This document shows, piece after piece, positions 14,508 to 61,872 of a stretch of 64,000 nucleotides of DNA. Under the pieces are notes generated by a model that saw only the letters and a list, made by a program, of their open reading frames with translations, made no database searches and was not told the origin of the DNA. This DNA comes from Escherichia coli. Its GTDB lineage: Bacteria > Pseudomonadota > Gammaproteobacteria > Enterobacterales > Enterobacteriaceae. The stretch is from the NCBI RefSeq assembly GCF_044324875.1, contig NZ_CP172185.1, one strand, 5' to 3'. The first letter of the stretch is position 1; each line of letters starts with the position of its first letter. The position numbers and the translations under genes are program-made.

Positions 14508-14583
<76 letters not shown>

Positions 14584-14618
14584 TTGGGTGGTCTGTGCTT
14601 TACAGCACTTTCAAATTT

Positions 14619-14694
<76 letters not shown>

Positions 14695-14851
14695 TTAATC
14701 TTCGTCTTTCGAACCGCTACTGCCTTGGCTGCCTTCACTCACCTTAGTCACTTACTTTTGTAAGCTCCCAAGGATTCGTTCAGTTGCCGCCTTGTCGCAA
14801 TTCGAAATACTGCGATTGGGTGGTCTGTGCTTTGCAGCACTTTTCAAATTT

Positions 14852-14927
<76 letters not shown>

Positions 14928-14976
14928 GTACTACTTAATTTTGCTTTCGTAATTTTCGCATTTCTGCGTCGTTACG

Positions 14977-15030
14977 GGAGGCGCATTATACGAGAAATCT
15001 TTCCCTCTGCAACCCCCCTAAAAAATTTTT
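14977..15030 (-). promoter_or_regulatory. Putative sigma70 promoter of the tRNA-Gly cluster with GC-rich discriminator
   Basis: Minus strand reads TTGCAG (15007-15012), 16-nt spacer, TATAAT (14985-14990), then GCGCCTCCC; A/T-rich tract upstream (15018-15040). Confidence 0.5.
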
Positions 15031-15137
15031 TTTGAGTTTTTATCTCAAATGCTGAAATTATCAGCAAGACGTTCAATTTAGCGTCAAAATCACGCCGCCG
15101 CAAGTGGATTCCGGCGCTTACGTGACCAGGAAAAATT

Positions 15138-15683
15138 TTACAGCTTGATAAAATGCTCGCGATAGTAAGCCAGTTCTGCCACCGACTCACGGATATCATC
15201 CATCGCCTGATGCGTCCCCTGCTTGGTAAAACCATCAAGAATTTCCGGCTTCCAGCGGCGCGCCAGCTCTTTCAGCGTGCTGACATCGAGATAACGGTAG
15301 TGGAAGTAGGCTTCCAGCTCCGGCATGTATTTAAACAGGAAGCGACGATCCTGGCCGATGCTGTTACCGCAAATCGGCGATTTTCCCGCAGGCACCCACT
15401 GTTTTAAGAATTCGAGCGTTGCCAGTTCAGCTTCACGATCGCCCATTGTGCTCGCTTTCACGCGCTCCACCAGCCCGCTGGCGGTATGGGTGCGCACGTT
15501 CCAGTCATCCATCAGCGCCAGCTGTTCATCAGACTGGTGTACTGCAATGGTCGGCCCTTCTGCCAGAATATTCAGGTTGGCATCGGTCACCAGCGTGGCA
15601 ATCTCAATAATGCGATCGCGCTCGGGATCCAGACCGGTCATCTCAAGATCGATCCAAATCAGGTTGTTTTCATTGGCACTCAT
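15138..15683 (-). CDS. orn: Oligoribonuclease
   Basis: 181-aa reading [27 protein letters not shown]... (DEDDh exonuclease); start at ATG 15683, not the longer in-frame extension. Confidence 0.92.
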
Positions 15684-15777
15684 GCTATTTTCCACCCATT
15701 CACAGTGACTATATTGATCCACAATTGCGTGTATCATAGATGTTTTGCCCATCAGGGGCGACCAGGAGTCTGTACGA

Positions 15778-16830
15778 TTGAGTAAAAATAAACTCTCCAA
15801 AGGCCAGCAGCGCCGCGTGAACGCCAATCACCAGCGTCGTCTTAAAACGTCTAAGGAGAAGCCCGACTACGACGACAATCTGTTTGACGAGCCTGATGAA
15901 GGTATCGTCATCAGCCGCTTTGGTATGCACGCTGATGTGGAATCCGCCGATGGCGACGTTCACCGCTGCAATATTCGCCGTACCATCCGTTCACTGGTGA
16001 CCGGCGACCGCGTAGTCTGGCGTCCGGGTAAACCGGCGGCGGAAGGCGTAAATGTCAAAGGGATCGTGGAAGCGGTGCATGAGCGCACCTCGGTGTTGAC
16101 GCGTCCGGATTTCTACGACGGCGTGAAACCTATTGCCGCCAACATCGACCAGATTGTCATTGTCTCCGCCATTTTGCCGGAGCTGTCGCTCAATATTATC
16201 GACCGTTACCTGGTGGCCTGCGAAACCTTGCAGATTGAGCCGATTATTGTGCTCAACAAGATAGACCTGCTGGACGACGAAGGTATGGAGTTCGTCAACG
16301 AGCAGATGGATATCTACCGCAATATCGGTTATCGCGTATTGATGGTTTCCAGCCATACTCAGGATGGGCTGAAACCGCTGGAAGAGGCGTTGACCGGGCG
16401 CATCAGCATTTTTGCCGGGCAGTCTGGCGTCGGTAAATCCAGCCTGCTGAACGCGTTGCTGGGGCTGCAAAAAGAGATCCTGACCAACGATGTCTCTGAC
16501 AACTCGGGTCTCGGTCAGCACACCACGACCGCCGCTCGGCTGTATCACTTCCCGCACGGCGGTGATGTGATTGACTCCCCAGGAGTGCGTGAGTTCGGCC
16601 TCTGGCACCTGGAGCCGGAACAAATCACTCAGGGCTTTGTCGAATTCCATGACTACTTAGGTCTGTGTAAATATCGCGATTGCAAACACGATACCGATCC
16701 GGGCTGCGCTATCCGGGAAGCGGTTGAGGAAGGAAAAATCGCGGAAACCCGTTTCGAAAACTATCACCGTATTCTGGAAAGCATGGCGCAGGTAAAAACG
16801 CGTAAAAACTTTTCTGATACGGATGACTGA
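15778..16830 (+). CDS. rsgA: Ribosome small-subunit biogenesis GTPase RsgA
   Basis: ORF with G motifs ([14 protein letters not shown]) and C-terminal zinc-finger Cys/His; start placed at TTG 15778 for a 350-aa product. Confidence 0.9.
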
Positions 16831-44081: not shown

Positions 44082-44157
44082 GCCCGGATAGCTCAGTCGG
44101 TAGAGCAGGGGATTGAAAATCCCCGTGTCCTTGGTTCGATTCCGAGTCCGGGCACCA
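44082..44157 (+). tRNA. pheU: tRNA-Phe (GAA)
   Basis: Exact 76-nt GCCCGGATAGCTCAGTCGGTAGAGCAGGGGATTGAAAATCCCCGTGTCCTTGGTTCGATTCCGAGTCCGGGCACCA. Confidence 0.97.
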
Positions 44158-44354: not shown

Positions 44355-45617
44355 ATGGCACTGACTGACGCAAAAATCCGGGCTGCAAAGCACACTGACA
44401 AGGCTTATAAACTCACTGACGGGGCTGGCATGTTCCTGCTGGTACATCCTAATGGTTCCCGTTACTGGCGTCTCCGTTATCGCATTCTGGGTAAGGAGAA
44501 AACTCTGGCACTTGGTGTATACCCGGAGGTTTCTCTCTCCGAAGCTCGTACAAAACGGGATGAGGCCCGAAAACTGATTTCGGAGGGGATTGACCCTTGC
44601 GAACAGAAAAGAGCTAAAAAAGTAGTCCCTGATTTACAACTCTCTTTTGAACATATTGCACGACGCTGGCATGCCAGTAATAAACAATGGGCACAATCAC
44701 ACAGCGATAAGGTACTCAAAAGCCTCGAAACACACGTTTTCCCCTTTATCGGCAACCGGAACATCACAACACTCAATACCCCGGACCTGCTTATCCCTGT
44801 TCGTGCTGCAGAAGCTAAACAAATTTATGAAATCGCCAGTCGTCTGCAGCAAAGAATATCTGCTGTAATGCGTTATGCCGTACAGTCTGGCATCATCAGA
44901 TATAATCCTGCTCTGGATATGGCTGGCGCATTGACCTCTGTAAAACGACAGCATCGCCCCGCTCTTGATCTTTCACGTCTGCCTGAACTTCTGTCGCGTA
45001 TTAACAGTTATAAAGGTCAGCCTGTCACCCGGCTTGCTGTTATGCTGAATTTACTGGTTTTTATTCGCTCCAGTGAACTCAGATATGCCCGCTGGGCTGA
45101 AATTGATATTGACAATTCAATGTGGACTATTCCAGCCGAACGCAAACCTCTGCCAGGGGTAAAATTCTCACACCGGGGCTCCAAGATGCGAACACCACAT
45201 CTTGTGCCACTCAGCAAACAGGCTGTAGCCATACTGACAGAACTTCAGACATGGGCTGGTGAAAATGGTCTGATCTTTACGGGAGCACATGACCCGCGTA
45301 AACCAATCAGTGAAAATACCGTAAATAAGGCCCTCAGAGTGATGGGGTATGACACAACCAAGGAAGTCTGTGGCCATGGATTCCGGGCGATGGCGTGCAG
45401 TGCATTGATTGAATCAGGTTTGTGGTCCCGCGATGCTGTGGAACGTCAGATGAGCCATCAGGAGCGTAATGGTGTACGTGCTGCGTATATCCATAAAGCA
45501 GAACATCTGGAAGAACGTCGACTGATGCTACAGTGGTGGGCAGATTTTCTGGATGCGAACAGAGATAAGGGTATCAGCCCGTTTGAATATGCAAAGATTA
45601 ACAATCCATTAAAATAG
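44355..45617 (+). CDS. P4-type tyrosine integrase
   Basis: 420-aa ORF; N-terminus MALTDAKIRAAKHTDKAYKLTDGAGMFLLVHPNGSRYWRLRYR (phage-integrase arm domain); C-terminus with HGFRAMACS and RAAYIH (R..H..R..Y catalytic signature); sits about 200 bp from the tRNA. Confidence 0.9.
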   Translation: MALTDAKIRAAKHTDKAYKLTDGAGMFLLVHPNGSRYWRLRYRILGKEKTLALGVYPEVSLSEARTKRDEARKLISEGIDPCEQKRAKKVVPDLQLSFEHIARRWHASNKQWAQSHSDKVLKSLETHVFPFIGNRNITTLNTPDLLIPVRAAEAKQIYEIASRLQQRISAVMRYAVQSGIIRYNPALDMAGALTSVKRQHRPALDLSRLPELLSRINSYKGQPVTRLAVMLNLLVFIRSSELRYARWAEIDIDNSMWTIPAERKPLPGVKFSHRGSKMRTPHLVPLSKQAVAILTELQTWAGENGLIFTGAHDPRKPISENTVNKALRVMGYDTTKEVCGHGFRAMACSALIESGLWSRDAVERQMSHQERNGVRAAYIHKAEHLEERRLMLQWWADFLDANRDKGISPFEYAKINNPLK

Positions 45618-46068: not shown

Positions 46069-49000
46069 ATGGATGAAAATGCTTTAGGGTTTGCCTCATA
46101 CTGGCGCAACTCGCTTGCGGACGCTGAGTCAGGAAAGGGCAGTTTTGAACGGAAAGACGCCAAAAATTTCACTCACTGGCATGGGATAGCGGCGGGACGT
46201 CTTGACGAAGCGATTGTCAGTAAATTTTTTAAGGGAGAAAAAGACGATGTCGAAACGGTCGATGTCATCTTGCGCCCAAAAGTTTATTTCCGGTTACTGC
46301 AGCATGGTAAGGACCGTTCTGCAGGTGCGCCTGATATTGTTACCCCGATAGTGACGCCAGCCTTGCTAAGCCGTGAGGGTTTTTTATATCCGACGCCAGC
46401 GACCTCCATTCCCAGAGACCTGCTTGAACCTTTGCCAAAAGGAGCATTTTCGATTGGTGAGATTGGGCAGTATGACAAATACAAGACGACCCATACCACG
46501 TTCTCTATCAACTTTGATGACAGCGTTGATAAGACTGCCGAAACGGATGAAGAACGGGAAGAACGATATGCAGCCTTGCAGCAGGAGTGGCGTCAATATC
46601 TGGATGATTCAGAGAGGCTGCTGAAGAACGTTGCCGGCGACTGGATTAAAAATCCTGAGCAATATGAACTCGCTGAGCACGGTTATATTGTTAAAACGGC
46701 GCAATCTGGCGGTGCCAGTTTCCATATCCTTTCTCTTTATGATCACCTGCTTGTTTGCAATAAGGATGTGCCGCTCTTCAATCGATTCGCCTCGCGAGAG
46801 GTTCATGCTGCAGAGTCTTTGCTGGCCCCTGGAGCAAAATTCAGCGACAGGCTTGGACACTCCGGAGATAAGTTTCCGCTGGCAAAGGCTCAGCGCGATG
46901 CCTTAAGCCATTTTCTGGATGCTAAACATGGCGATATCCTTGCTGTTAATGGCCCTCCTGGAACCGGAAAAACCACGCTGGTGCTTTCTATCATCGCCAC
47001 GCAGTGGGCCAGAGCGGCTCTCGAAAAATCTGAGCCTCCGGTTATTATCGCGACTTCAACGAATAACCAGGCTGTAACGAACATTATTGAGGCATTCGGG
47101 AAAGACTTTTCGCAAGGTTCAGGTGCGATGGCCGGGCGATGGTTGCCAGAGCTGAAAAGCTTCGGCGCTTATTTTCCCTCAGGCAGCCGTAAAGCTGAAG
47201 CAGCCAAAAAATATCAAACTGAAGATTTCTTCAACCAGGTTGAGTCAAAAGAGTATGTAGAAGATGCACTGCTGTTTTATCTGGAAAAGGCTAAGGCAGC
47301 CTTTCCTGAAAAAGAGTGTTCATCCCCTGAAAAGGTCATTGAACTCCTGCATGGTCAGTTGGCAGCAAAATCCGAGCAACTGATAAGACTGAACGCAACA
47401 TGGCAAAAGTTAAGCCAGATTCGGGCTGCGCGTGAGCTTATTGCTAATGATATTGAGCAATATCTCAATAATTTAAATAAATTACTTTCCGGACAAGAAC
47501 AAAAAATCACTCTACTGAAGAGTGCTAAAACGGAATGGAAAAAATATCGCGCCGGTGAATCACTGATCTATTCATTATTTTCCTGGCTTCCGGCGGTTCG
47601 CAGTAAGCGACAGTACCAAATACAGCTGTTTCTCGAAGATAAATTAGGTGCGCTGATTGCAGGAAATCAATGGTCTGATCCTGAAACTATCGAACGTAAT
47701 ATTGATGGGCTGCTCAATTCCGCTGAGCGCGAGCAAACAACATACCGGCAGCAGATTGACTCCGCCCATGAAATCATTCTTAAAGAACAGCAGGCGGTTC
47801 AGGAGTGGCAGAGACTGGCTCTTGATTTAGGGTATGAGGGCGACGAGGAACTGAGCTTCTCACAGGCCGATGAACTGGCTGATACGCAGATTCGCTTCCC
47901 TGCATTTTTACTGACGACTCACTACTGGGAAGGTCGTTGGCTGATGGATATGGCCAGCATTGATGATCTGCAGGAAGAGAAGAAGAAAAAAGGCGCTAAA
48001 GGGGTAACCGCCCGTTGGCAACGTCGAATGAAACTCACTCCATGTGTGGTGATGACATGCTATATGCTGCCCGGCAATATGCAGATAAGTGAGCACAAAG
48101 GACAGCGTAAATTCGAGAAAAGTTATTTGTATGATTTTGCCGATTTACTCATTGTCGATGAAGCCGGGCAGGTGCTTCCTGAAGTGGCTGCTGCCTCGTT
48201 TGCATTAGCTAAGAAGGCATTAGTGATTGGCGATACGGAGCAGATCCCGCCAATATGGAGTATTGCTCCTGCGATTGATATCGGTAACATGCTGGCGGAA
48301 AAAATTCTGTCTGGCAGTACGCAAGAAGAGATTACCGAGAAATATACGGCAATCGCAGACCTTGGTAAAAGTGCCGCATCTGGCAGCGTTATGAAAATAG
48401 CGCAGTTTGCTTCGCGCTATCAATATGATCCCGAACTGGCTCGTGGTATGTACCTATATGAACACCGCCGGTGCTACGACAATATTATTGGATACTGTAA
48501 TACGCTCTGCTATCACGGTAAGTTGTTGCCTAAAAGAGGGCGTGAAGAGAGCAATTTAATGCCCGCAATGGGGTATCTCCATATTGATGGTAAAGGAGAG
48601 CTGGCAAGTAGTGGAAGTCGATATAATTTGCTTGAGGCTGAAACGATAGCGGTCTGGTTGGCAGAGAACCAGCAAAATATTGAAGCGCATTACGGTAAAT
48701 CGCTTCATGAAGTTGTCGGTATTGTGACGCCTTTTAGCGCTCAGGTATCCACTATCAAACAGGTGCTGGGCAAACAAGGTATCAGTACAGGCACGAATGA
48801 AAAGTCGCTCACAGTGGGCACCGTGCACTCTCTTCAGGGAGCGGAAAGAGCGATTGTGATATTCTCGCCAGTCTATTCAAAACATGAAGACGGCGGGTTT
48901 ATTGATAGCGATAACAGCATGCTGAATGTTGCAGTCTCCCGTGCGAAGGACAGTTTTCTGGTCTTCGGCGATATGGACCTGTTTGAGGTCCAGCCAGCCT

Positions 49001-49584
49001 CATCGCCACGGGGATTACTGGCAAAATACCTCTTTGAGTCAGAGAAGAATGCGCTCTCTTTTGATTATAAAGAGCGTAAGGATTTAAAAACCGCCGGGAC
49101 CAAAATCTACACACTTCATGGTGTGGAGCAACATGATAATTTCCTGAATCAGACATTTGAAAATACCAGTAAACACATCACGATAGTTTCTCCATGGCTG
49201 ACCTGGCAAAGGCTGGAGCAAACCGGTTTTCTTGATTCCATGATTGCGGCGTGTTCACGTGGAATTAACGTCACGATAGTCACTGACAGAAGCTACAACA
49301 CTGAACATAATGATTTTGAGAAGCGAAAAGAGAAGCAGCAGAACTTTAAAGCGGCGCTGGAGAAACTGAATGCGCTGGGTATTGCTACAAAGCTGGTAAA
49401 CCGTGTTCATAGCAAAATTGTTATTGGTGATGATGGTTTGCTGTGCGTGGGATCGTTCAACTGGTTTAGTGCGACACGGGAAGCGCGATATGAACGATAC
49501 GATACATCAATGGTTTATTGCGGTGATAACCTGAAGGGTGAGATTGAGGCTATTTATAATAGTCTTGAGAGGCGGCAGGTTTAG
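46069..49584 (+). CDS. Upf1-like SF1 helicase fused to a C-terminal PLD-family (single HKD) nuclease domain; candidate anti-phage defence protein with Mokosh type II-like architecture
   Basis: 1171-aa ORF. Walker [10 protein letters not shown] (aa 295-303, nt 46951-46977); Walker [10 protein letters not shown] (nt 48145-48171); helicase motifs [19 protein letters not shown] and [16 protein letters not shown] (nt 48814-48972); C-terminal HSKIVIGDD...GSFNW = H-x-K-x4-D...GSxN (nt 49408-49464). Located beside the island integrase. Confidence 0.8.
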
Positions 49585-49692: not shown

Positions 49693-51192
49693 TTATCTTC
49701 TGCCCGGAAGAATCAGAGGCTGTGGTTTCAGACTGTCTGCCGGTACATTCCTGTCTCCGTTAAAAACAATAACGGGTTCATTATCTTCGTCTGTCAGCGG
49801 ATTGAATGGCGGTATATTTTCAGTACGAATGCCGGTCAGCCACTGAAAAATACCTGCGAAATGACGGGCACTGATTTTTCTGCTGACGGACTGATGAGAC
49901 GTGATGTCACTGGCGGTAATAATCAGGGGAACGCTGTAGCCTCCTTGTATATGGCCATCATGATGAACAGGATTAGCACTGTCGCTGACCGACAGACCAT
50001 GGTCAGAAAAGTAAAGCATGGCAAAATGACGGGAGTGCCGGCGAAGGATACCATCAAGCTGACCGAGAAAGTTATCCAGTTTACTGATGCTGGCGAGGTA
50101 ACAGGCAATCTTTCGGGGATACTGCTCCAGGTAATGATTCGGCCAGGAGTTAAGTCGGTCACACGGATTCGGATGAGAGCCAATCATGTGCAGGAATATC
50201 ACCTTCGGAGAGGATTTATCCGCCAGTGCACGTTCTGTTTCCTGTAACAACAACATGTCATCCGTTTTACGGGAAGCAAAGCTGCCTTTCTTGAGGAAAA
50301 CGGTATGCTCCGCATCAGAAGCAATAACAGAGATGCGTGTATCATGCTCCCCCAGTTTTCCCTGATTGGATATCCACCATGTGCTGTATCCTGCTTTTGC
50401 TGCCAGCGCCACCACGTTGTTGCCGGAGTCAGGGTTCTGCTCATAGTCATAAATCAGTGTCCGGCTCAGGGAAGGTACGGTACTGGCTGCTGCCGATGTA
50501 TAGCCGTCAATAAATAAACCGGGAGCCGTATTCAGCCATGGTGTGGTTGGCACGGGATAGCCATATACCGACATATAATCCCTGCGCACACTCTCACCAG
50601 TAACGATAACAATCGTGTCATACAACGGTGTTCCCGGCAGGATTTTCCAGTTGTCAGCCCCGTGCTGACTCAGTTGTTTATAACGCTGCATTTCACGCAA
50701 TGTGTCAGTTGTTCCCACAACAATTCCTTTAACCATCCGCAACGGCCAGCTGTTTACAGAGCATAATACGAACAGCAGCAGTGCCAGCCAGTTACGGTGA
50801 CCGCGGTGGTGTGTCCGCCAGAAAATCACCATGAATACCAGAATCGCGGCACTGACCAGAAAATGATAAACAGGAATCATCCCGGTAAACTCTGCAGCCT
50901 CATCAGCCGTGGTCTGCAGCAACGCGACAATAAAACTGTTGTTGATTTTACCGTACGTCATACCCGCAGGCGCATACAGTGCACAACAGAACAGAAATAA
51001 CAGCGTTGTAATGGATGTGAGGGTATTTCTGTGTGCAAGGAGCAGAAGGAGAAACAGAAGCAGCACATTTCCTGTGGCATTCTTCTCAGTGTATCCGCAT
51101 GCAATTGTGGTTATCACAGAAATAACAAAAAAGAATAAAAACAATAAAATCCGGGGTGTGTCGCCCGGACAAAACAGTTTTCTGATATTCAT
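49693..51192 (-). CDS. Sulfatase-family inner-membrane protein (phosphoethanolamine-transferase-like)
   Basis: 499-aa ORF; N-terminal ~130 aa strongly hydrophobic (multiple TM helices), C-terminal domain with VTGESVRRDY and HMIGSHPNP motifs resembling EptA/OpgE/LtaS-type transferases. Confidence 0.7.
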   Translation of the reverse strand: MNIRKLFCPGDTPRILLFLFFFVISVITTIACGYTEKNATGNVLLLFLLLLLAHRNTLTSITTLLFLFCCALYAPAGMTYGKINNSFIVALLQTTADEAAEFTGMIPVYHFLVSAAILVFMVIFWRTHHRGHRNWLALLLFVLCSVNSWPLRMVKGIVVGTTDTLREMQRYKQLSQHGADNWKILPGTPLYDTIVIVTGESVRRDYMSVYGYPVPTTPWLNTAPGLFIDGYTSAAASTVPSLSRTLIYDYEQNPDSGNNVVALAAKAGYSTWWISNQGKLGEHDTRISVIASDAEHTVFLKKGSFASRKTDDMLLLQETERALADKSSPKVIFLHMIGSHPNPCDRLNSWPNHYLEQYPRKIACYLASISKLDNFLGQLDGILRRHSRHFAMLYFSDHGLSVSDSANPVHHDGHIQGGYSVPLIITASDITSHQSVSRKISARHFAGIFQWLTGIRTENIPPFNPLTDEDNEPVIVFNGDRNVPADSLKPQPLILPGRR

Positions 51193-51373
51193 CGGAGTAT
51201 ATCGACAACATTATTATGAAGAGAACAGGATAATAAAAATCAGAAATTATCTGTAAAACAGATAACAGACAACCCTGCAGCAATAGACTGCAGGGTGTTT
51301 CTGTTTAATTGCAGAAGATATACAATTATATTAATTACAGAATATTCGTGATTATCTCTCGGGAACAGTGTTG

Positions 51374-52114
51374 TCAGAAGTTATAAGTCACACCAAGCAT
51401 GATGTCATGACTTTTAACATCAACTTCTGACTTATATTTATCGCCCCACTCGTCCTTGTAACTCACACTGCTGTCACCTGCATCAAGATAGCGATAGCTG
51501 AGGTCCAGAGCGATATCCGGGGTTACGTCATAGCGGACACCCGCGCCAAGGTTCCATGCGAAGTTGTCAGCAGAGCCTGAACGTGACAACGATTCGCGAC
51601 CACTGCTTCCGTACTCATAATCCCAGGTACTGATACCGGTTGTTTTCTGGTGAATTCTGGCGTAGCCAATCCCTGCAGATATCCAAGGTGTGAATGCGCT
51701 GTCATTCCGGAAGTCATAGTACGCATTCAGCATTAGTGTGTTGACTGACACCTCATTCTTCAGGTCATCACGCCAGTAACCACCTGACCAACTGTCTTTA
51801 TCTACGTTATACTTCGAATCAGCTTTTCCACGAGCGTAAAACTCCAGTTCTGTACGAACCGGAATACTGAACTGCGGATAAAAATCATAACCAGCCGCGA
51901 TACCACCACTGAATACCGTATCATGGTCATCGCCGCCTTTATACTTTGACGTTTCTTCCTCATCTCCTGACAGGAAACGCTGGTCTGAAAGTGACACCAC
52001 AGAGGTACCGGCTTTACCGGTCAGATAAAAACCGCTTTTACCTTCCTCAGCACCTGCATTTGCTGCAAATACACAGGCTGCGGCCACCACTGAAACAGCA
52101 AAAACCTTTTTCAT
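51374..52114 (-). CDS. Outer-membrane beta-barrel protein (Opa/Ail/OmpA-like)
   Basis: 246-aa ORF with signal peptide MKKVFAVSVVAAACVFAANAGA, alternating amphipathic strands rich in Y/G/D, and C-terminal ...GVTYNF (terminal Phe typical of OM beta-barrels). Confidence 0.7.
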   Translation of the reverse strand: MKKVFAVSVVAAACVFAANAGAEEGKSGFYLTGKAGTSVVSLSDQRFLSGDEEETSKYKGGDDHDTVFSGGIAAGYDFYPQFSIPVRTELEFYARGKADSKYNVDKDSWSGGYWRDDLKNEVSVNTLMLNAYYDFRNDSAFTPWISAGIGYARIHQKTTGISTWDYEYGSSGRESLSRSGSADNFAWNLGAGVRYDVTPDIALDLSYRYLDAGDSSVSYKDEWGDKYKSEVDVKSHDIMLGVTYNF

Positions 52115-52190
52115 TTCAATTATCTCCGTTATTGCTCCGTTGCTGCAAGCAGTACTCAGTGCATTTTAAAACCCGCCATGCTATAGCCTC

Positions 52191-52235
52191 AATCGAATAA
52201 AATCGATCGAATCGATCGATGATATCGATCGTCAT
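52191..52235. repeat. ATCGA(T)-rich low-complexity tract with overlapping ATCGAT palindromes
   Basis: AATCGAATAAAATCGATCGAATCGATCGATGATATCGATCG about 80 bp upstream of the OMP start codon. Confidence 0.6.
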
Positions 52236-52601
52236 TAACCAGAAATTTTTATCGTATTCAGTCAGCACAGACACAACAAATGCATGCCATGCAGGCAGCC
52301 ATGCCCCGTCGCGACAGATGGTAGCAGTGGGCTGGCGAAGAGCAGAATTAATAAAATTTGTTTATTCTGTCAGGAGATAAGGTGTCACCTGTTCATGAAC
52401 ACAATTAAGGAAGAGACATACATGAGCTGACTGGCAGTCCAGAGTGCATGCGGTTACAAGCCGGAAAGGTGAACCGGTATAACCAGTGAGCAGAGTTTGT
52501 GAAGGGGGGATATAAAAAAGCCCACTGCATGGCTGCGGGTAAAGAGTCAGTTATTTCCGGCGTTTTTCAAGGTAGTTGTCGCCTGATGTAATAAAATTAC
52601 G

Positions 52602-52960
52602 TTATGCCGCTTCTTTTTCTGGATTCAGATAAACTGCCTGAATGAGTTCCCAGTCACGCAACTGTTTGCTCCAGCGCTCAGGATGACGCTTGCGAGCTTC
52701 GCGATAAACTTTTTTTCTGGCTTCCAGTATTTGTGCATCAATTCCGCGATGGCGTTCATCCGGAGTAACATACTTAATACCGCTGTGCTTGTGTTCCAGG
52801 TTGTACCATTACGTGAACTTGCTTAACCAACTTCTGGCTTCATCTATGGTTCGAAAACCATTCTCCGGCCACCATGAACAATACTTAATCGTCCGGAAGA
52901 GCGATTCGGAATAAAGAAGTGTTACTGGCAGTTCTTTCATCGCATCAGTGAAAACCAGCA
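52602..52960 (-). pseudogene. Transposase C-terminal remnant (DDE integrase-core type, IS3-like), interrupted by a stop codon
   Basis: Minus-strand translation ...SLFRTIKY...WPENGFRTIDEARSWLSKFT*WYNLEHKHSGIKYVTPDERHRGIDAQILEARKKVYREARKRHPERWS...; no N-terminal part present. Confidence 0.5.
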
Positions 52961-52969
52961 GGGCACTGC

Positions 52970-53391
52970 TCACCAGAGCAACACAGGAAAGTGAACCCGA
53001 ACAAAAGTTCCTGTACCATTTTCTCCCAGCAGACGTGAGGCTTGTTCCAGTGACGCTGGTATACGTCCCAGCCGGACATCAAGTGCGCCGATGGCTATTG
53101 CCTGAAATCGCATCGTACAGCAAATCACCAACAGGACACCGACAGACATTAAAGGTAACCCCCTGTAATCCAGTAGTTCCGCCAGCCAGCGGTCATTTAG
53201 GGAGTCAGAAAACCAATCGCCAGAATCGTGCCCGGAAAGGCATAACCCAGCGACGCCCCTCTCATCACACCGCGCCTGAACAGTGGCATAGCGTTGAGGA
53301 ATTCCGGGCATTCCAGACTACGAGCAGACTGACAAAAATTACGACAAAGCGTTGAAGGAAGCCAGCGCGCGGACTGACAGGACTTTACCAT
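52970..53391 (-). pseudogene. ABC-transporter permease remnant (frameshifted fragments)
   Basis: Two overlapping minus-strand ORFs with permease-type motifs (...AMPLFRRGVMRGASLGYAFPGTILAIGFL...; ...LEQASRLLGENGTGTFVRVHFPVLLW); no intact gene. Confidence 0.4.
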
Positions 53392-53440
53392 AAAAACACA
53401 GGCTAACCGCGCCTGCGTTTTTAATGACGGATAAACAGAA

Positions 53441-55420
53441 TCAGGTGCCGATTATGCCGCCGTCGGCTTTTACGATAACGACAGTTGAGGAGCGCGGACG
53501 ACCAGCCTTATCGCCGTCAGGCCAGCTTGATACTGCCGTCGGATGCTGCGGATCGCTAAGCCCTTCGCTTGGCTCGCCAGGGTGCTGGATGTTAATAAAC
53601 AGCGTCCGGTTATCCGGAGTGAACGCGATGCCGGTGATTTCGCAGCCGCGCGGGCCGGTCAGGAAGCGGCGGAACTCATTGGTACCGGGGATCGTCGCCA
53701 CCATCTGGTTGTTGCCCATGCCTTTGTAATCTTTACTATTGATGGTTGATGACGACACGTCGGTCTGGATCCATAGCACGCCGCGGTGATCGAAGCTCAG
53801 GCCATCGGCGCTGCCGAATTCCGCCCCCTTCATGCTGCCTTTGGTTTCCGGTTTGTCCGTATCGGTGCGACCGCCCATCACAAGAATATCCCAGGCAAAC
53901 TGCAGCGCGGTCGGGTCACCGTTATGCTCCAACCAGTGAATGATGTGGCCGTAAACGTTTTTGGCGCGCGGGTTGGCCGCATCCACTGGCGCTTTTCCTT
54001 CCTTACCGCGATCGCTGTTGTTGGTGAGCGTGCAGTAAACGCTGCCGGCGTGATATGGATCGACCGCAATCCACTCCGGGCGGTCCATTTTAGTGGCCCC
54101 CACGGCGTCTGCCGCCAGACGGGTTTTAATCAACAGGTCGCCCTGGTTTTCAAACCCTTTACTGGCGTCGAGCCCATTTTGTCCGAACACCAGCGGTAGC
54201 CACTCGCCTTTGCCGTCGTCGTTAAATTTCGCCACGTACAGAGTGCCTTTTTCCAGCAGGTGCATGTTGGCTTTGCGATCCTGCGGGTTGAATTTTCCTT
54301 CCGAGACAAATTTATATATGTATTCGAATTTCTGGTCATCGCCCATATAGACCACAACGCGGTTATCCGGGGCAATTGTCACCGCTGCGCCTTCGTGTTT
54401 GATGCGACCAAGCGCGGTGTGCTTGCGCGGCACTGAATGCGGATCGTATGGATCGATTTCCACCACCCAGCCGAAGCGGTTCGGCTCGTTCGGCGTGGCG
54501 TCGACGCTGAACCTTTTATCCACTTCGTTCCAGCGGTAAGAGTCGTCGCTCCCGCTGATACCGTAACGTTTTTCCAGCGGGTTCATCTCTGCTTTTTTTA
54601 CGAAAATATCGGACCAGTTCTCTTCACACGTCAGATAGGTGCCCCACGGCGTAAATCCGTTGGCACAGTTCTGCATGGTGCCGAGAATGATTTCGCCTTT
54701 CGGATCGTCAACTGTTTGCATCAGTGGGTTATGCAGCGCCGGACCGGTGATTTTCATCGGCGTGTTAACGGTGATGCGGCGTGCGAAAGATGACGGGCGC
54801 ACCACTTCCCAGCCCAGGGGCACTTTTTTTACTTCAATGACCGACACGCCCATCGCGTTCTGGCCTTTAAGAGCTTTATCGGCGCTCCAGTTGGCATCGC
54901 CATCTTTAAACAGTAGACCGTTATCGATGTATTCATGGTTTATGGCAAGCAGGCCGTGATCGGAGCTGTTCCCGCCCTGCGGCAGGCTAAACCACGCCAT
55001 GCCGTCGTGGTGCATCCCGGCCTGCGCCGCCTGTTCTTCCGTGGTGTTGCTACCGTCGGTTTTAAAAACCGGCAGATTTCCGGCAATCCCGGTGGCGTCG
55101 CCCCATTTGTAGAAGGGCTTCGCGATGTATCCTTCCGGCACGATAACGGTATCTTCCGTGGAAACCGGCAGGCTGGTGAAACCGAGCGTCGTCGCTTTGC
55201 CGAGGTTACCGCTTGCTTTGGAGACCACTTTCGCCAGCGCGTTTTCCTGTTTCAGCAGAAATGGGAACGCTGCCGCGGCACCGGCGACCGTGCCGGCCTG
55301 TAACAGACGGCGGCGTGACAAATAAACTTCCGCCACCTGCGAAAACGCGCGGTTATCGCTCGGGTTACTGATTTCTTCACTATGCTCACGTTTGAATAAA
55401 GTTTTTAACGGTCTGCCCAT
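53441..55420 (-). CDS. PhoX-family phosphatase (DUF839) with Tat-type signal peptide
   Basis: 659-aa ORF; N-terminus ...SRRRLLQAGTVAGAAAAFPFL (twin-arginine-like); body matches the beta-propeller PhoX/DUF839 pattern. Confidence 0.75.
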   Translation of the reverse strand: MGRPLKTLFKREHSEEISNPSDNRAFSQVAEVYLSRRRLLQAGTVAGAAAAFPFLLKQENALAKVVSKASGNLGKATTLGFTSLPVSTEDTVIVPEGYIAKPFYKWGDATGIAGNLPVFKTDGSNTTEEQAAQAGMHHDGMAWFSLPQGGNSSDHGLLAINHEYIDNGLLFKDGDANWSADKALKGQNAMGVSVIEVKKVPLGWEVVRPSSFARRITVNTPMKITGPALHNPLMQTVDDPKGEIILGTMQNCANGFTPWGTYLTCEENWSDIFVKKAEMNPLEKRYGISGSDDSYRWNEVDKRFSVDATPNEPNRFGWVVEIDPYDPHSVPRKHTALGRIKHEGAAVTIAPDNRVVVYMGDDQKFEYIYKFVSEGKFNPQDRKANMHLLEKGTLYVAKFNDDGKGEWLPLVFGQNGLDASKGFENQGDLLIKTRLAADAVGATKMDRPEWIAVDPYHAGSVYCTLTNNSDRGKEGKAPVDAANPRAKNVYGHIIHWLEHNGDPTALQFAWDILVMGGRTDTDKPETKGSMKGAEFGSADGLSFDHRGVLWIQTDVSSSTINSKDYKGMGNNQMVATIPGTNEFRRFLTGPRGCEITGIAFTPDNRTLFINIQHPGEPSEGLSDPQHPTAVSSWPDGDKAGRPRSSTVVIVKADGGIIGT

Positions 55421-55842
55421 TGCGGTTTCCTTTCAAAAAATCGATTTCAAGGGGAATCATTTTTATGCACGTGAGTCTACGGAAAGATTGTTACGGAAAT
55501 ATAACAATTGTCATAAAAAACCGGCGATAAAATCATCTATGGTCGGGACGCGGTTTCAGGTATGATGTGAGGCTAGAATTCTGAACGCTCTCTTTTGTTG
55601 AGCATATATGGACGTCCCGGGTGAGGCAAGTACTGGTTCGATGCGGTTTGCGACCATATATCCGGCGTCGTTAGTAGGTTCAATGACCTGCGCCATGATG
55701 TTATCCGGGCCCTGTTTCCTAATCACTACACCGGTATTTGATTACCCAGGTCAACTTCAGACTGTTACAGGGGCGGTAGCCGTTATCTCATCAGTGAATG
55801 TAAACTCAGTTAAAAATATTTTCTATAACTTACTGTTTTTCT

Positions 55843-56026
55843 TTAATTCATCACAACGGCCTTCTGCATATTAAAATCAATACTATCGCTCAAAACACGC
55901 CAGATGATTCTTGTCAGCTTATTCGCCAGCGCACCAGTGGTTTTCAGGAACCCTCGACGGGCTTCCATCCTTTGCAGACAAATACTCAGACTGTCAGTGA
56001 GCTTTTTCACACAGCGCATTACAGAC
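55843..56026 (-). pseudogene. Transposase-like C-terminal fragment (family uncertain), cut by the IS911-like end
   Basis: Short minus-strand ORF ...TGALANKLTRIIWRVLSDSIDFNMQ... abutting the IS911-like terminal repeat at 56027. Confidence 0.3.
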
Positions 56027-56440
56027 TGAAATGGCACACTGAATTTGGTCACCTGAACAGAGGTGATATGCTCACCTCAGAACAAGACTGGTGCCCTAAT
56101 GAAAAAAAGAAATTTTAGCGCAGAGTTTAAACGCTAATCCGCCCAACTGGTTGTTGACCAGAACTATACGGTGGCAGATGCCGCCAAAGCTATGGATATC
56201 GGCCTTTCCACAATGACAAGATGGGTCAAACAACTGCGTGATGAGCGTCAGGGCAAAACACTAAAAGCCTCTCCGATGACACCAGAACAAATCGAAATAC
56301 GTGAGCTGAGGAAAAAGCTACAACGCATTGAAATGGAGAATGAAATATTAAAAAGGCTACTGCACTCTTGATGTCAGCCTCCCTGAACAGTTCTCTATAA
56401 TAGGGAAACTCAGGACACGTTATCCTTTGGTCACTCTCTG
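56027..56440 (+). mobile_element. IS911-like (IS3 family) left-end fragment with inactivated orfA
   Basis: Terminal repeat TGAAATGGCACACTGAATTTGGTCACCTGAACAG at 56027; orfA from ATG 56099 reads MKKRNFSAEFKR* (in-frame TAA), then ...[29 protein letters not shown]...IEMENEILK; right boundary approximate. Confidence 0.7.
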
Positions 56441-57310
56441 TGTAGTGGATCGGTAATTCAGGACACCTCATTTTCACTGTTAATGTTAAAAAGTGAAAAT
56501 GAGGTGATGCATGATCAAAACTCGTCGGACTAAACGTACCTTTTCCCCGGAGTTCAAGCTTGAAGCTATCGAACAGGTGGTTAAATACCAGCGTGATGTC
56601 AGAGAAGTCGCGCTGGCACTCGAGCTCAACCCTGACCATTTGCGTAAATAGATACGGTTGTATAAGCAGGAACTTCAGGGTATTGAGCCCGCTGGTAATG
56701 CTATTACTCCTGAACAACGCTAAATTAAGCAGCTTAAAGCGCAGATAAAGCGCCCTGAGATGGAAAAAGAAATACTAAAGCAGGCTGCCGTGCTGATGAG
56801 CGAAATCCCCGGGGAAACTGTCGCGCTAATCACACAGCTGAAAGCAAAGTGGCCAGTGCGGGTTCTTTGTCATTTATTCGGTATTCACCGTAGCATTTAT
56901 TACGCGCAGGTGAAGCGTCCTGTTAATGTGCAAAGAATTGAATTACGAAGTCGGGTGAGGGCTGTCCATGCTCTCAGTCGTGGCGCAGTCGGTAGCCGGG
57001 CAATCAGTCAGATGTTGCGCCATAGTGGCGTTGATGCAGGTCGGTGGCTGGCACGACGACTGATGCGGGAATGCGGGCTGACAAGTCGACAGCCAGTTAA
57101 ACATCACTACCGGGTAAACGAAGACAAAAGTCCGCCATTGCCAAATTTACTGAACCGGCAATTTCACCCCGCCGCACCAAACCGCGTCTGGTGCGGCAAC
57201 ATCAGTTTTATTCGCCTGCAGGACAAATGGTGTTATCTCGCACTCGTTGTTGATTTATATTCACGGCGGATTATCGGTTCAGCCCTCTCATTAACCGCTG
57301 ATGCTGAGTT
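56441..57310 (+). mobile_element. Second IS3-family element fragment (orfA and 5' part of orfB), truncated by the IS66 insertion
   Basis: orfA from ATG 56511 (MIKTRRTKRTFSPEFKLEAIEQVVKYQRDVREVALALELNPDHLRK*), orfB-like ORF 56760-57314 (...RVWCGNISFIRLQDKWCYLALVVDLYSRRIIG...) ending at the IS66 end; left boundary approximate. Confidence 0.6.
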
Positions 57311-57347
57311 GTAAGCGTACAGCGAGGGCCGTATTGACGGGGATGTG

Positions 57348-58886
57348 TTATTCAGCTGGCAGTGCTATGCGCCACGGAAGCAGTTCGCTGACCCGGTTGA
57401 CCGGCCAGTCTGCTATGACGCCAAGCACATGGCGAAGGTAGCTTTCTGGATCCACGTCATTCAGTTTGCACGTCCCTATCAGGCTGTACAGTAGCGCTCC
57501 CCGCTCACCACCATGGCCAGAGCCGAAGAACAGGAAGTTTTTACGACCCAGACTTACCGCCCGCAGGGCATTTTCAGCGATGTTGTTGTCGATTTCCACC
57601 CAGCCATCGTTCGCATAGTACGTCAGTGCCGGCCACTGGTTAAGTGCGTACGCGAACGCCTTCGCCAACTCTGAGTGTCGCGACAGGGTCTTCATCTTTT
57701 CACGCAACCAGCTTTCCAGGGATTTCAACAGCGGTTTCGTTTTTCGCTGACGTTCAGCAAGCCGCTGCTCTGCCGGCATTCCCCTTATATCCGCCTCTAT
57801 GGCGTACAACTGACCGATCTGCTCCAGGGCTTCTTCCGTCAGTGCTGACGGGATGCGGACGTGCACATCGTGGATCTTTCGGCGGGCATGAGCCCAGCAG
57901 GCAGCTTCCGTTATCCCACCATTGCGATACAGCTCGTTGAACCCGGCGTACGCATCCGCTTGCAGCACACCGCTGAAGCAAGCAAGATGAGTCTGCGGAT
58001 GGATGCCTTTTCTGTCCGGGCTGTAAGCGAACCACACTGCAGGTGCCAACGCTGACCCGGCATTGCGGTCATCACGAACATACGCCCACAACCGCCCGGT
58101 CTTCGTCTTCTTATTACCCGGCATCAGTACCTGGACCGGGGTATCATCGGCATGGAGTTTGCCGTCAGTCATGACATAGCCATGAAGCGCCTCTTCCAGC
58201 GGAGACAGCAGCCGGCAGCATGCATCCACCCAGCCCGACAGCAGTGAACGGCTCAGCTCCACACCTTGCCGGCCGTATATTTCTGACTGGCGATACAGCG
58301 GGGTGTGCTCTGCATACTTCGAGGTCAGCACGCGGGCCAGCAGCCCCGGTCCGGCGATACCCCGCTCGATGGGCCGCGAAGGTGCAGGTGCCTGCACGAT
58401 GGCATCGCACTGAGTACAGGCATGTTTTTCCCGTACCGTCCGGATAACCCGGAAGGCGCTACGCATCAACTCCAGCTGTTCGGCGGTATCCTCGCCCAGA
58501 TAGCTCAGTGAACCGCCGCAGTTCGGGCAGCACGGCGCCGCAGGCAACAGTCGCTTTTCGTCACGGGGTAGTGATTCAGGGAACGGCTTACGGATGCGGG
58601 TCTGACGCAACGGACGCTGTACTGCCGGGTCATACACCCTACCAGTCAGCGTATCGCTCTCTTTCTGAAGCCGGTTCAGATCGGCTTCCATTTGTGCGAT
58701 ACGGCGGGAGACTTTTTCGGAACGACTGCCGAAGTTCATCCGGCGGAGTTTATCCAGCTGCGCCTGCAGATGGTCTATTTCGCGCTCCCGGTTGCTCAGC
58801 TTTTCCTGCAGGGCGTGGATCAGCGCTTCCTGTTCGGCCAGGCGCTGTTTCAGCAGGAAGATGTCGTCAGAAGAGATGTCGTTCAT
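57348..58886 (-). CDS. IS66-family transposase TnpC
   Basis: 512-aa ORF with N-terminal leucine-zipper/coiled-coil ([24 protein letters not shown]), Cys-rich zinc-finger region (CPNCGG...CTQCD) and DDE core. Confidence 0.88.
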
Positions 58887-58935
58887 AAGCCCGTATTTTA
58901 CCGGGCTTATTCTGTGACAACCAGGATAAAGAGAT

Positions 58936-59283
58936 TTACAGCATGGTCAGGGAGGTCAGCAGCCGCTTAGGCTGTCGCCAGTCGATACCTTCCAGCAGCA
59001 TCGCCAGCTGCGCCTGTGTAAGGAACACTTTGCCATCACGGGCTGACGGCCAGGCGAAGCGCCCACGCTCCAGCCGTTTGGTCAGGAGGCACAGTCCGTC
59101 ACCGGTGGACCACAGCAGTTTAACCTGACTGCCGCTGCGGCCCCGGAAAATGAAAACATGGCCGGACATGGGATCGTCTTTCAGCGCCGTCTGTACTTTC
59201 GCAGCCAGGCCGTTGAAGCCATTTCTCATATCGGTGATACCGGCAACCAGCCAAATTTTGGTCCCGGAAGGTAAAGGGATCAT
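58936..59283 (-). CDS. IS66 accessory protein TnpB (orf2)
   Basis: 115-aa [34 protein letters not shown]... Confidence 0.85.
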
Positions 59284-59681
59284 CGCTTCAGTTCCTGTAT
59301 CAGCAGAGTCAGGAGCTTTTCGCTGACATTGCCATTGAAGCGGAGCGTCCCGTGCCGGAACGTTACCTCACAGCTGATACTGAGGGTTTCCGGGTCCTCT
59401 GCGAGCGATTCTGGCTGTTCGGCAGCTGCATCGAGAGTCACAGGAAGTAGCTGGGGGCTCTCTGAAGAAGGTAATAGCAGCTTTCCCTCGCGCCATTGTT
59501 GTCGCCATTTGAACAACAGATTGGCGTTAATGCCATTTTCAAGAGCAAGTTTTGAGATGGATATCCCGGGTTCACAGGAGGCAGCAACGAGCTGCTGTTT
59601 AAATTCGGGAGGATAATTAGGGCAGCCTTTTCGCCTGCCGGGAGTCACATTTTTCTGCATATCTGACACTTTGGTTCCCAC
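59280..59681 (-). CDS. IS66 accessory protein TnpA (orf1)
   Basis: 133-aa ORF; 4-bp overlap with tnpB. Confidence 0.8.
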   Translation of the reverse strand: MGTKVSDMQKNVTPGRRKGCPNYPPEFKQQLVAASCEPGISISKLALENGINANLLFKWRQQWREGKLLLPSSESPQLLPVTLDAAAEQPESLAEDPETLSISCEVTFRHGTLRFNGNVSEKLLTLLIQELKR

Positions 59682-59752
59682 TACTTATTTGGTGGACACC
59701 ACTTTGTCTAATTCGTCAGATTCTGACCAGACGGTTCAGGCTGTACGCTTAC

Positions 59753-61833
59753 GCCTGACCGGTGTCTCTGGTGACATATTCCGGAGCTCCGGAGAGAGTA
59801 AAGGTAACGCGATCATCGGCAGAAGCATCTCCATACTGCAGATGCCCGTCGTTGGGGATCATGGCCAGTTTGCCGTAATAGCGATACACATTGTATTCAT
59901 CCTGTGTATAGCCAAAGAAGGACTGATTATTCAGTTGTGAACCCGACAGGCTGACAAACTCGCTGGCAAGAAGATGACTTCCCGTATTATCCAGTTTGTT
60001 CGCGTCAATCAGCAGATTATTACCGGCCGAAATTCTGGCATCCCCCCCTGTTGCACCAACATCGACGCGTGTTGTGCCAGTCAGAAATTTCCGGGTGGCT
60101 CCCTTTTCAGTCGGAACGGCCCATGCCTCAAAACCACCACCGGCAGTACCGCTCCAGGACTTCACATAATATCCCCATCCATTTTCACCTAAATCGCCCA
60201 CTCTGACTGAAACAGAATTTACACCATCAGGTACTGCGACATTCTCAACCGGAATGTATGATTTTGTCTCATTTATACCCTCCCGCTGATTCAGTAAATG
60301 TCCGGTTCTGATGGTGATATCACCGCGGGTGGTTTCGATATTCCCGGAGGTATTAATCACTTCAGCATTCGCGGCACCACTGACATCTTTCTGCATCACC
60401 AGGCTGTAACCCGCCAGCATATCGCCGTGATGGTTCCGGATGGTGCTGGCAAACAGCGAGAGGTTATTGCCCGCATACAACAGTGCGGTGTTAATGACTG
60501 CCCCGGCGACCGTTAACACCAGACTACCCGTCGTGCCGGTAAAACCGTCGAGAGTGATATCTCCCCTGCTGGTCAGGCTGACGTCCCCGCCTGCCTGCAG
60601 GCTGCCGCTGGCATTCATCGCAATCCCGCTGCCGCTCAGTGCCGTGGTGCCGTTGCCGGCGGTCAACTGGCCATTGTTGGTCAGCCTGCCTGCAGCATTC
60701 AGCGTGATACCGTTGCCCTGCAATGTGGCGCCATTGGTAATATCACCCTGGCTGCTGACGGAGAGTTGTTTATTCGCGGCGATAACGCCCTGTGCGGTCA
60801 AACCACGTGTGAGCTTCAGCGTCAGGTTACCGAGTGCAACCAGCTGGCCCGCGCCGCTGAGCGAGACCATTTCAGCAAGCATATCACCGCCGCTGAACAC
60901 CTTCCCGCCGGCGTTGTTCAGGCTGTTCCCTTTTATTGTCAGGCCCTGATTACCCAGCAGCGTGCCGCTGTTGGTGATGGTCTGCGTGTTGACGTTCAGT
61001 TGTGCAGCCTGGAACAGGCCACGGTTGGTCAGACTGTTACCTGTGAGCGTTGCCTGATTCGCCGCCATCACAGTGCCATTACCGGCAAGCTTCGCCACGT
61101 TCAGCAGCAGGTCAGTGGCCTGTAGCCAGCCACTGCCACTGTAGTCCGGCGTGGTGAACGTCAGCTCACCGCCGGAAAGAATCTTGCCACTGTTGTGGGC
61201 CTGCGTTGCCGCGCTGAGCGTGGTTTTACCGTTGCCCTGAATGGTGCCGTCATTAGTCAGCACAGGTGCAGAAAGCGCTGATACGTTCTGACTGAGAAGC
61301 ACACCGCTGGTCTGGTTGGTCAGGGCATTCAGCAATGTAAGAGTCAGCCCGCTGTCGCCCTGCACACGACCTGAGTTGGTCAGCGAACTGGCGGTGATTC
61401 GGTTATCCGCCCCCTGAAGCTGCCCACTATTGCTGATGTCTCTGGCGTTGACGTTTAATGTACCGCCTGTCAGCATTTTACCGTGCTGTTGCAGATTACC
61501 ACTGAGTGTCACATTCAGGCTGTTAACACCACTGATTTCGCCACCGTTGCTGAGCGAATCACCATTCACTTCCAGCGTCTTCGCGCTGATTAATCCCTTG
61601 TTACCCAGCACTTTCCCGGTAAGGCGGGCATCGCCCAGGGCGGTAATTTTGCTGCCGGTGGCAGCAATAACATCGCCACTCAGGGTCAGAGCCAACTCCA
61701 GCGCACTCTGAACAGCACCGCTGCTGGTCAGGCTGCTGGCATCCAGAGTAATGTTCTGCCCCTGAATCCGGCCGCTGTTGGTCACATCTCCTGCGCTCAG
61801 CGTCAGCGAGTTCTGGCTCGATCCGCGCACCAC
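59753..61833 (-). pseudogene. Internal fragment of a filamentous-haemagglutinin / CdiA-like two-partner-secretion exoprotein
   Basis: 694-aa minus-strand ORF made of degenerate repeats (...LTNSGRVQG..., ...LNNAGGKVFSGGDM..., ...GNSLTNRGLFQAAQLNVN...); no TPS secretion domain; reading frame terminates inside the IS66 terminal repeat. Confidence 0.7.
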
Positions 61834-61872
61834 TTATCCCGAACTGCGTCAGCAGTTGATCGGAGGTACACC

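Follow-up and report, generated by a model that had tools for sequence, protein, structure and literature searches.

What is the row of insertion sequences (ISs) at the edge of this Escherichia coli genomic island made of, and did its members arrive by inserting one into another? We analyzed the locus within a 64,000-nucleotide stretch of contig NZ_CP172185.1 (hereafter, the window). A sequence-only reading had proposed at least three successive insertions at one spot, with junctions at 56027, 56441, 57310/57311 and 59752. Each of these junctions proved exact, and together they separate four distinct IS elements spanning 55598-59752: an IS110-family stub, an IS911-like stub, an ISKpn37 stub and a complete ISEc8 (Table 1). 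The proposed order also stands, as do the description of the three left stubs as dead and that of the IS66-family member as complete. Element names rest on the PGAP labels of the best-matching copies, not on ISfinder assignment. Exact names and junctions are thereby given to a locus auto-annotated merely as "transposase, frameshifted". An Rfam scan of 55300-60000 (E ≤ 1) returned no matches.

Table 1 Features of the insertion-sequence cluster, in window coordinates.
Feature	Position	Strand	Remark
IS110-family 3′ remnant	55598-56026	-	429 bp; transposase end and non-coding end
IS110-family 3′ non-coding end	55842-55598	-	245 bp
IS110-family transposase, last 60 codons	56025-55846	-	stop codon 55845-55843
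IS911-like 5′ remnant, nt 1-414	56027-56440	+	IS3 family; left inverted repeat at 56027
IS911-like orfA	56099-56371	+	in-frame TAA 56135-56137
ISKpn37 isoform 5′ remnant, nt 1-870 of 1253	56441-57310	+	left inverted repeat TGTAGTGGATCGG
ISKpn37-stub orfA	start 56511	+	in-frame stops 56649-56651 and 56721-56723
ISEc8 left flank	57303-57310		GCTGAGTT; approximately ISKpn37 nt 863-870
Complete ISEc8 (IS66 family)	57311-59752	-	2442 bp
ISEc8 terminal inverted repeats	57311-57323 and 59740-59752	-	GTAAGCGTACAGC, 13/13
ISEc8 tnpC	57348-58886	-	
ISEc8 tnpB	58936-59283	-	
ISEc8 tnpA	59280-59660	-	to 59681 from upstream GTG
Internal cdiA fragment, both ends cut	59753-61834	-	adjoins ISEc8 right end

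The leftmost stub encodes a peptide that is 86.7% identical over 60 amino acids (tblastn, E 2e-26) to a transposase annotated as IS110 family on the Klebsiella aerogenes plasmid pYD-K10_1. The NCBIfam model NF033542 matches this peptide at profile positions 304-340 of 343 (E 3.6e-4), a match that falls short of the whole-protein cut-off, as expected with a 60-aa piece. At the nucleotide level, the pYD-K10_1 element and the stub share 93.5% identity over 429 gapless bp; this likeness spans the final 181 nt of the gene and the 245-nt 3′ end, and the flanks of the two copies diverge at the same base. A transposase remnant had been correctly recognized here from the sequence, with its family and strand left unstated and its non-coding tail missed: the remnant reaches left beyond the stop codon of the open reading frame (55843-55845) as far as 55598. 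In comparison with the pYD-K10_1 element, the window keeps the last 429 bp only, and the catalytic N-terminal part is gone. The N-terminal DEDD catalytic domain and Transposase_20 are both absent, Pfam gives no match in the fragment, and none of the remaining parts of the element is found elsewhere in the window. A guide-RNA remnant in the 3′ non-coding end was considered and dropped, as the RNA fold is no better than those of shuffled sequences (z = +0.89).

Alignment to a PGAP-named IS911 bears out the proposal that the transposase fragment is ended at 56027 by an IS911-type left end, which reads TGAAATGG in the window and TGAAGTGG in IS911. The segment from there to 56440 is 93.3% identical (387/415, gapless) to the IS911 of strain YJ4; further copies named IS911 give 93.2-93.5% identity, and ISEc52 gives 88.6%. 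It has the same left inverted repeat and orfA as IS911, is collinear with it over 414 nt, and contains a Pfam HTH_Tnp_1 match. Unlike IS911, it carries a nonsense codon at position 13 and is cut at nt 414, about 23 codons into orfB, without an intact orfAB. The in-frame TAA previously noted in orfA is real: from 56099 the frame reads MKKRNFSAEFKR, then TAA, where IS911 has GAA. Isoforms in ISfinder practice usually share at least 95% nucleotide identity; with an identity below this level, the TAA and the truncation, "IS911-like" is therefore the right label.

From 56441 onward, a different IS3-family element begins, again as had been read from the sequence. Its left end matches ISKpn37: starting from TGTAGTGG, the segment is 97.1% identical over 871 aligned positions to the PGAP-named ISKpn37 on R. 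planticola pRpNDM-1, so that the stub combines at least 95% nucleotide identity with the characteristic left end. Its orfB fragment is 94.6% identical in amino acid sequence to ISKpn37 and only about 42% identical to the orfB of IS911 and of ISEc52, which establishes that 56027-57310 holds two elements rather than one. An NCBIfam IS3-family model matches the stub (E 5e-44), and Pfam identifies HTH_21 and positions 2-48 of the 102-position rve profile, placing the cut within the integrase-core domain. The right end of ISKpn37 was not found in the window, and neither was a complete orfAB or a 3-bp duplication; the 3′ part of ISKpn37 reads GGCGTTATGG... ISKpn37 has already been reported as a common element of E. 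coli pheU islands (PMC8386418).

The complete IS66-family element anticipated from 57311 is ISEc8, with tnpA, tnpB and tnpC all intact. Its three open reading frames are uninterrupted and contain DDE_Tnp_IS66 (PF03050, E 9e-107), zf-IS66, LZ_Tnp_IS66, TnpB_IS66 and HTH_Tnp_1 domains (Pfam accessions PF01527, PF05717, PF03050, PF13005, PF13007 and PF13817). The ends of the element start with GTAAGCG, and the inverted repeats agree at 13/13 positions at the tips and at 23/40 overall. Over its 2442 bp, the window copy is 100.000% identical to that of strain B771, with zero differences, and it is 99.7% identical to the copy in ES1; PGAP names the transposases of both strains ISEc8 family. This copy is presumably still mobile. 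It shares the length, the tnpA, tnpB and tnpC domains and the termini of ISEc8, and differs in having no 8-bp target-site duplication and in its flanks, which come from unrelated genes.

IS66-family members generate an 8-bp target duplication (PMC3281130, Table 2). In the window, the sequence left of ISEc8 is GCTGAGTT and that on the right is GCCTGACC, and a search for target-site duplications at all junctions found none. Right of ISEc8 lies not ISKpn37 orfB but an internal fragment of cdiA, which encodes a contact-dependent inhibition toxin, and the joint falls exactly at the final base of ISEc8. This fragment has a Pfam Fil_haemagg match and is 98.3% identical to a stretch within the 9711-bp cdiA of strain N1 (nt 14001-16081 of locus L006, approximately codons 872-1565). 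The last event at this copy of ISEc8 is thus not insertion into ISKpn37, and the missing duplication reflects later rearrangement rather than non-membership in the IS66 family.

These flanks bear directly on the idea that the locus records three clean, nested insertions and nothing further. The intact outer end of each interrupting element does lie exactly at the break, and ISEc8 is able to insert cleanly into ISKpn37: in CU42ET-1 it interrupts a different copy of ISKpn37 and is flanked by a perfect 8-bp duplication, AGGTGTTC. Against this, at each of the window's three junctions the interrupted element fails to resume beyond its interrupter, and the 3′ part of ISKpn37, the 3′ part of the IS911-like element and the 5′ part of the IS110-family element do not follow on the right in nested order. 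The unrelated flanks of ISEc8 and the missing duplication contradict the nested account outright for the ISEc8 step, and 114 bp is gone at ISEc8 in B771-type genomes. We therefore consider purely nested insertion extremely improbable. The earlier claim of three successive insertions at one spot holds for the distinctness and order of the elements and fails for simple nesting. Taken together, the absence of any resuming host element or target-site duplication, the cdiA flank and the 114-bp loss in B771-type genomes point to insertions combined with deletions precise to an IS end, with recombination, or with both.

We counted the junctions over 5426 complete E. coli genomes. The ISKpn37/ISEc8 left junction occurs in a form identical to the window's in 37 of them. 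On the right, 11/5426 carry the B771-type junction, in which ISEc8 is followed by ISKpn37 nt 983-1253, so that ISKpn37 resumes minus 114 bp; five of the 5426 have the window-type ISEc8/cdiA junction; and BEN2908 shows a third right flank behind the same left junction. Since one left junction is thus found with at least three different right flanks across other genomes, the suggestion that the spot is a rearrangement hotspot is upheld. The right-hand cargo differs by type, comprising a cdiA remnant with sugar-use genes, a serine-protease autotransporter, or other IS66 remnants. In B771, the candidate 3-bp duplication of ISKpn37 does not match (CTG versus ACT), and no significant alignment to a continuation of IS911 follows the right end of ISKpn37. 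With no recognizable IS911 beyond ISKpn37 in the B771 type, ISKpn37 may have inserted into the IS911-like element or may have been brought next to it by a deletion.

None of the 5426 complete genomes combines exactly the two junctions seen in the window, so that change between the window and ES1 types may have run either way. This absence, together with an ISEc8 sequence of B771 type beside a right flank of ES1 type, is also what an assembly artefact would produce, had the wrong flanks of two ISEc8 copies (one in ISKpn37, one beside cdiA) been joined across the 2.4-kb repeat. We consider such an artefact very unlikely. Four complete genomes contain the ISKpn37 stub, ISEc8 and the cdiA fragment arranged and oriented as in the window, the sole differences being a 37-bp deletion and 7 SNPs within the IS, which means that the architecture is real in nature. 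Of the five genomes that have the cdiA junction, four lack the 37 bp in question directly at the left end of ISEc8.

How, then, did ISEc8 come to adjoin cdiA? A single ISEc8-mediated adjacent deletion into a cdiA downstream in the same island, without any homologous exchange and with the window type as direct ancestor of the ES1 and I2 types, would account for a joint that is exact to the IS end and has no duplication. It also fits the two or three other end-precise deletions that flank the ISEc8 lineage, which removed 37 bp in the ES1 type and a total of 114 bp in the B771 type; counting the loss that joined cdiA and taking the 114 bp as one or two steps, at least three independent deletions in this lineage start exactly at an IS end. 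The reciprocal or parental junction, cdiA next to the ISEc8 left end, is likewise found in 0/5426 genomes when sought as the left part of cdiA followed by GCCTGACC and the ISEc8 left end. The divergence between the window and ES1 speaks against this scenario: there are 27 differences over the 6716 bp up to the right end of ISEc8 and 2 over the 4248 bp beyond it (Fisher p = 1.7e-4). This step of about 9-fold at the ISEc8 right end indicates that the two sides have had different histories. Moreover, B771-type islands have no cdiA downstream of ISEc8, and the deletion would need intramolecular transposition, of which we know of no demonstration for IS66-family elements. Overall, a single adjacent deletion is a lesser possibility, to be kept in view rather than preferred.

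The reading that we find most probable by a good measure is a decayed four-IS cluster closing an island block, in which ISEc8 transposed and its flanks were later exchanged by homologous recombination. Every left element breaks off at the very point where the next one begins with its intact outer end, which fits an arrival order of the IS110-family element, the IS911-like element, ISKpn37 and finally ISEc8, although the junctions of the window retain no duplication to prove it. All three interrupted elements have since lost their far halves. ISEc8 would first have sat within ISKpn37, a state kept, less 114 bp, in B771-type genomes. Its joint with cdiA must, we infer, have been made by the transposase, either through simple insertion or through an intramolecular transposition in which the DNA in between was removed. 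The present pair of flanks is best accounted for by later homologous exchange between related islands, via ISEc8 and a shared 10-kb block. We infer exchange from the divergence step and from strain I2, whose chimeric IS66 element is ISEc8 from nt ~1035 to 2442 and derives from another family member over nt 1-1030. The parent state needed for this exchange, a simple insertion of ISEc8 in cdiA, occurs in 0/5426 genomes.

The transposition chemistry of IS66-family elements is poorly characterized. A broader proposal, that these elements frequently undergo intramolecular transposition and, separately, that the 10-kb block serves as a crossover for origin-spanning inversions that create hybrid pheU/selC islands, as the layout of B771 (tRNA-Phe ... 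setC) would suggest, seems to us unlikely. In the favored reading of transposition followed by exchange, the three stubs would be functionless and the effect of the cluster structural, with ISEc8 acting as a portable homology patch and as an active end that reshuffles the right-hand module of the island.

The cluster closes a conserved block of ~10 kb that includes genes for a phosphoethanolamine transferase and an outer-membrane protein, an ABC-permease pseudogene and phoX. In the window, tRNA-Phe (pheU) lies at 44082-44157, followed by an integrase open reading frame at 44355, and three tRNA-Gly(GCC) genes lie 30 kb upstream. Full collinearity with ES1 at selC was considered and rejected: the window lies at pheU, as tRNA-Phe and glyVXY show, and what it has in common with ES1 is limited to 49.7-64 kb. 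The block stands behind three different tRNA/integrase modules, tRNA-Phe in the window, tRNA-Sec in ES1 and tRNA-Leu in BEN2908, and the version ending in ISEc8 is inverted in orientation between pheU and selC.

IS clusters at the module boundaries of tRNA-associated pathogenicity and genomic islands likewise place IS remnants between conserved and variable blocks; compared with these, the window is a typical example and shows nothing unusual. The locus is an ordinary pile-up of known E. coli IS elements at the edge of a genomic island: all of its elements are already known, and most of it is annotated in dozens of public genomes. It offers no new kind of element or mechanism, and is useful for comparing island variants and interpreting assemblies. 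ISEc8, the sole element here that is still live, lies at the seam where the right-hand cargo of the island varies between strains, and it marks where that part was exchanged or deleted.

An insertion-sequence (IS) cluster lies on the E. coli chromosome, about 11.5 kb inside an island and directly downstream of phoX. A sequence-only reading had described it as nested insertions at 55843-59752, beginning with a transposase fragment and with junctions at 56027, 56441 and 57310. Element alignments show that all of these junctions are exact. The transposase fragment is also present, but the cluster starts at 55598, since the reading left out a 245-bp 3' non-coding tail that belongs to this IS110-family remnant. 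A Pfam search of the remnant's 69-aa minus-strand ORF gave no match. Of this ORF, 60 codons are genuine; they share 86.7% identity (E 2e-26) with the C-terminal end of a K. aerogenes plasmid protein annotated as an IS110 family transposase, and they match positions 304-340 of the 343-position NCBIfam profile NF033542. The DNA match stops at the identical base in the window and K. aerogenes plasmid contexts, marking the true right end of the element. An Rfam search of the 3' non-coding end gave no match, and RNA folding of this end revealed nothing unusual. Separately, over 800 F-type plasmids keep 157 bp of it (window 55603-55759) without annotation and with 86% identity; in these plasmids the piece adjoins an IS3-family fragment (for example, plasmid locus L011).

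Features of the island and its IS cluster (window coordinates)
Feature	Position	Details
tRNA-Gly(GCC) genes	at 14.5 kb	n=3
tRNA-Phe	44082-44157	
Integrase ORF	44355-45617	downstream of tRNA-Phe
1171-aa ORF	46069-49584	directly after island integrase; RefSeq label only AAA domain-containing protein
Shared block	49693-59752	phosphoethanolamine transferase, outer-membrane protein, ABC-permease pseudogene, phoX, IS cluster
phoX	53441-55420	divergently oriented; Pfam PhoX E 6e-166
IS110-family 3' remnant	56026 down to 55598	minus strand; 429 bp; DNA match 93.5% to K. aerogenes plasmid element
IS911-like 5' stub	56027-56440	nt 1-414 of IS911 (YJ4); 93.3% identity, gap-free
ISKpn37 5' stub	56441-57310	97.1% identity to nt 1-870 of 1253-bp ISKpn37 (R. 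planticola pRpNDM-1)
ISEc8 (IS66 family)	57311-59752	2442 bp; perfect 13-bp tips; tnpA, tnpB, tnpC intact
cdiA internal fragment	59753-61834	98.3% identity to strain N1 cdiA, roughly codons 872-1565 of 3236; truncated at both ends

The PGAP-named IS911 of YJ4 aligns from its first base at 56027 (TGAAGTGG in YJ4, TGAAATGG in the window); identity of the stub to other named IS911 copies is 93.2-93.5%, and to ISEc52 88.6%. The in-frame TAA reported in orfA is real: from the start at 56099 the frame reads MKKRNFSAEFKR-TAA, where IS911 has GAA. A different IS3-family element begins at 56441 (TGTAGTGGATCGG). Its orfB fragment shares 94.6% amino acid identity with ISKpn37 and only about 42% with IS911 and ISEc52, so 56027-57310 comprises two elements and not one contiguous element. 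Two in-frame stops (56649 and 56721) interrupt this stub, which breaks off within the rve domain; a 3-bp GGC duplication borders the pRpNDM-1 copy of ISKpn37.

The fourth element was correctly recognized as a complete IS66-family element, with every IS66-family Pfam domain found. The copy in strain B771, with a transposase that PGAP labels as ISEc8 family, matches it at 100% identity. The family norm for target duplication is 8 bp (PMC3281130, Table 2), and no 8-bp duplication surrounds the window copy (left octamer GCTGAGTT, right octamer GCCTGACC); this ISEc8 is not a simple insertion. Clean insertion of ISEc8 into ISKpn37 does occur, as shown by a perfect 8-bp duplication (AGGTGTTC) around ISEc8 in a separate ISKpn37 copy beside a histidine-kinase gene in CU42ET-1. 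UTI89 has the same context, which has been described for pheU islands (PMC8386418). Each stub stops where the next element begins with its outer end intact, which fits arrival of the IS110-family element first, followed by the IS911-like element, ISKpn37 and ISEc8, an order we can only infer since the far halves and duplications have all been lost.

Across 5426 complete E. coli genomes, the left junction of ISEc8 with ISKpn37 (57310/57311) is unchanged in 37 and the right junction with cdiA (59752/59753) is found in only five; none has the exact pair, for which an assembly mis-join is a minor alternative explanation. The ISEc8/cdiA joint is base-precise and thus a transposase product, which could have formed by simple insertion or an intramolecular event; a hypothetical parent with ISEc8 simply inserted in cdiA was found in none of the 5426 genomes. 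In four of the five right-junction genomes (ES1, ST38, GF43 and A65EC), another 37 bp of ISKpn37 are missing immediately next to the left end of ISEc8. In the B771 type (11 genomes), ISKpn37 nt 983-1253 and then a serine-protease autotransporter gene come after ISEc8; there is no duplication, and 114 bp of ISKpn37 are gone. BEN2908 shares the left junction and has a third kind of right flank, which consists of other IS66 remnants. Adjacent deletion alone is a serious rival explanation of the window arrangement. The current flanks are nevertheless best explained by a later exchange, which would have run through ISEc8 or the shared block, as supported by a chimeric element and a step in divergence.

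The chimera occurs in the fifth right-junction genome, I2 (locus L004, 6630-9073), adjoining an IS256 fragment. Its ISEc8 portion, nt ~1035-2442, covers tnpA, tnpB and 5' tnpC and has the ES1 haplotype; the first ~1030 nt come from a different, diverged family member, which is direct evidence for recombination within IS66-family copies. The window differs from B771 at 8 positions in 10,253 bp, none in ISEc8. Against ES1, the 6716 bp that end at the right end of ISEc8 hold 27 differences and the 4248 bp past it hold 2 (Fisher p = 1.7e-4), and ES1 and I2 have their SNPs in common both in the cdiA flank and in the right-hand portion of ISEc8; together these indicate separate histories left and right of the ISEc8 right end. 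The orphan cdiA fragment itself retains 694 codons with haemagglutinin repeats, without cdiB, toxin tip or cdiI, and its right end adjoins a DUF3833/YbgA gene pair, a break at which no IS is present.

The sequence-only observation was correct and careful, and the locus is ordinary. None of the four elements is of a new kind; existing PGAP annotation of dozens of genomes covers the IS911-like, ISKpn37-like and ISEc8 parts, leaving the IS110-family remnant unannotated. IS clusters are commonplace at island module seams. The recurrent end-precise deletions around one ISEc8 lineage are mildly interesting.

On the K-12 map, the spacing of the tRNA-Gly and tRNA-Phe genes identifies the island site as pheU. 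The ~10-kb shared block is 98-99.9% identical among islands and stands behind three tRNA/integrase modules: tRNA-Phe (window, B771, strain 135), tRNA-Sec (ES1) and tRNA-Leu (BEN2908). ISEc8 forms its right edge, and the left edge falls at the transferase gene's stop codon. In B771 (L005 and L002, compared with ES1 locus L017), the tRNA-Phe island terminates at rhuM'-setC-yicL-nlpA, the core genes normally adjoining selC. This layout suggests a large inversion that spans the origin and has its end points in the pheU and selC islands. The window's source genome may carry a similar hybrid island, whose B771-like end would lie beyond the window's last base at 64000; a part that the duplicated block may play in large inversions is also mildly interesting.
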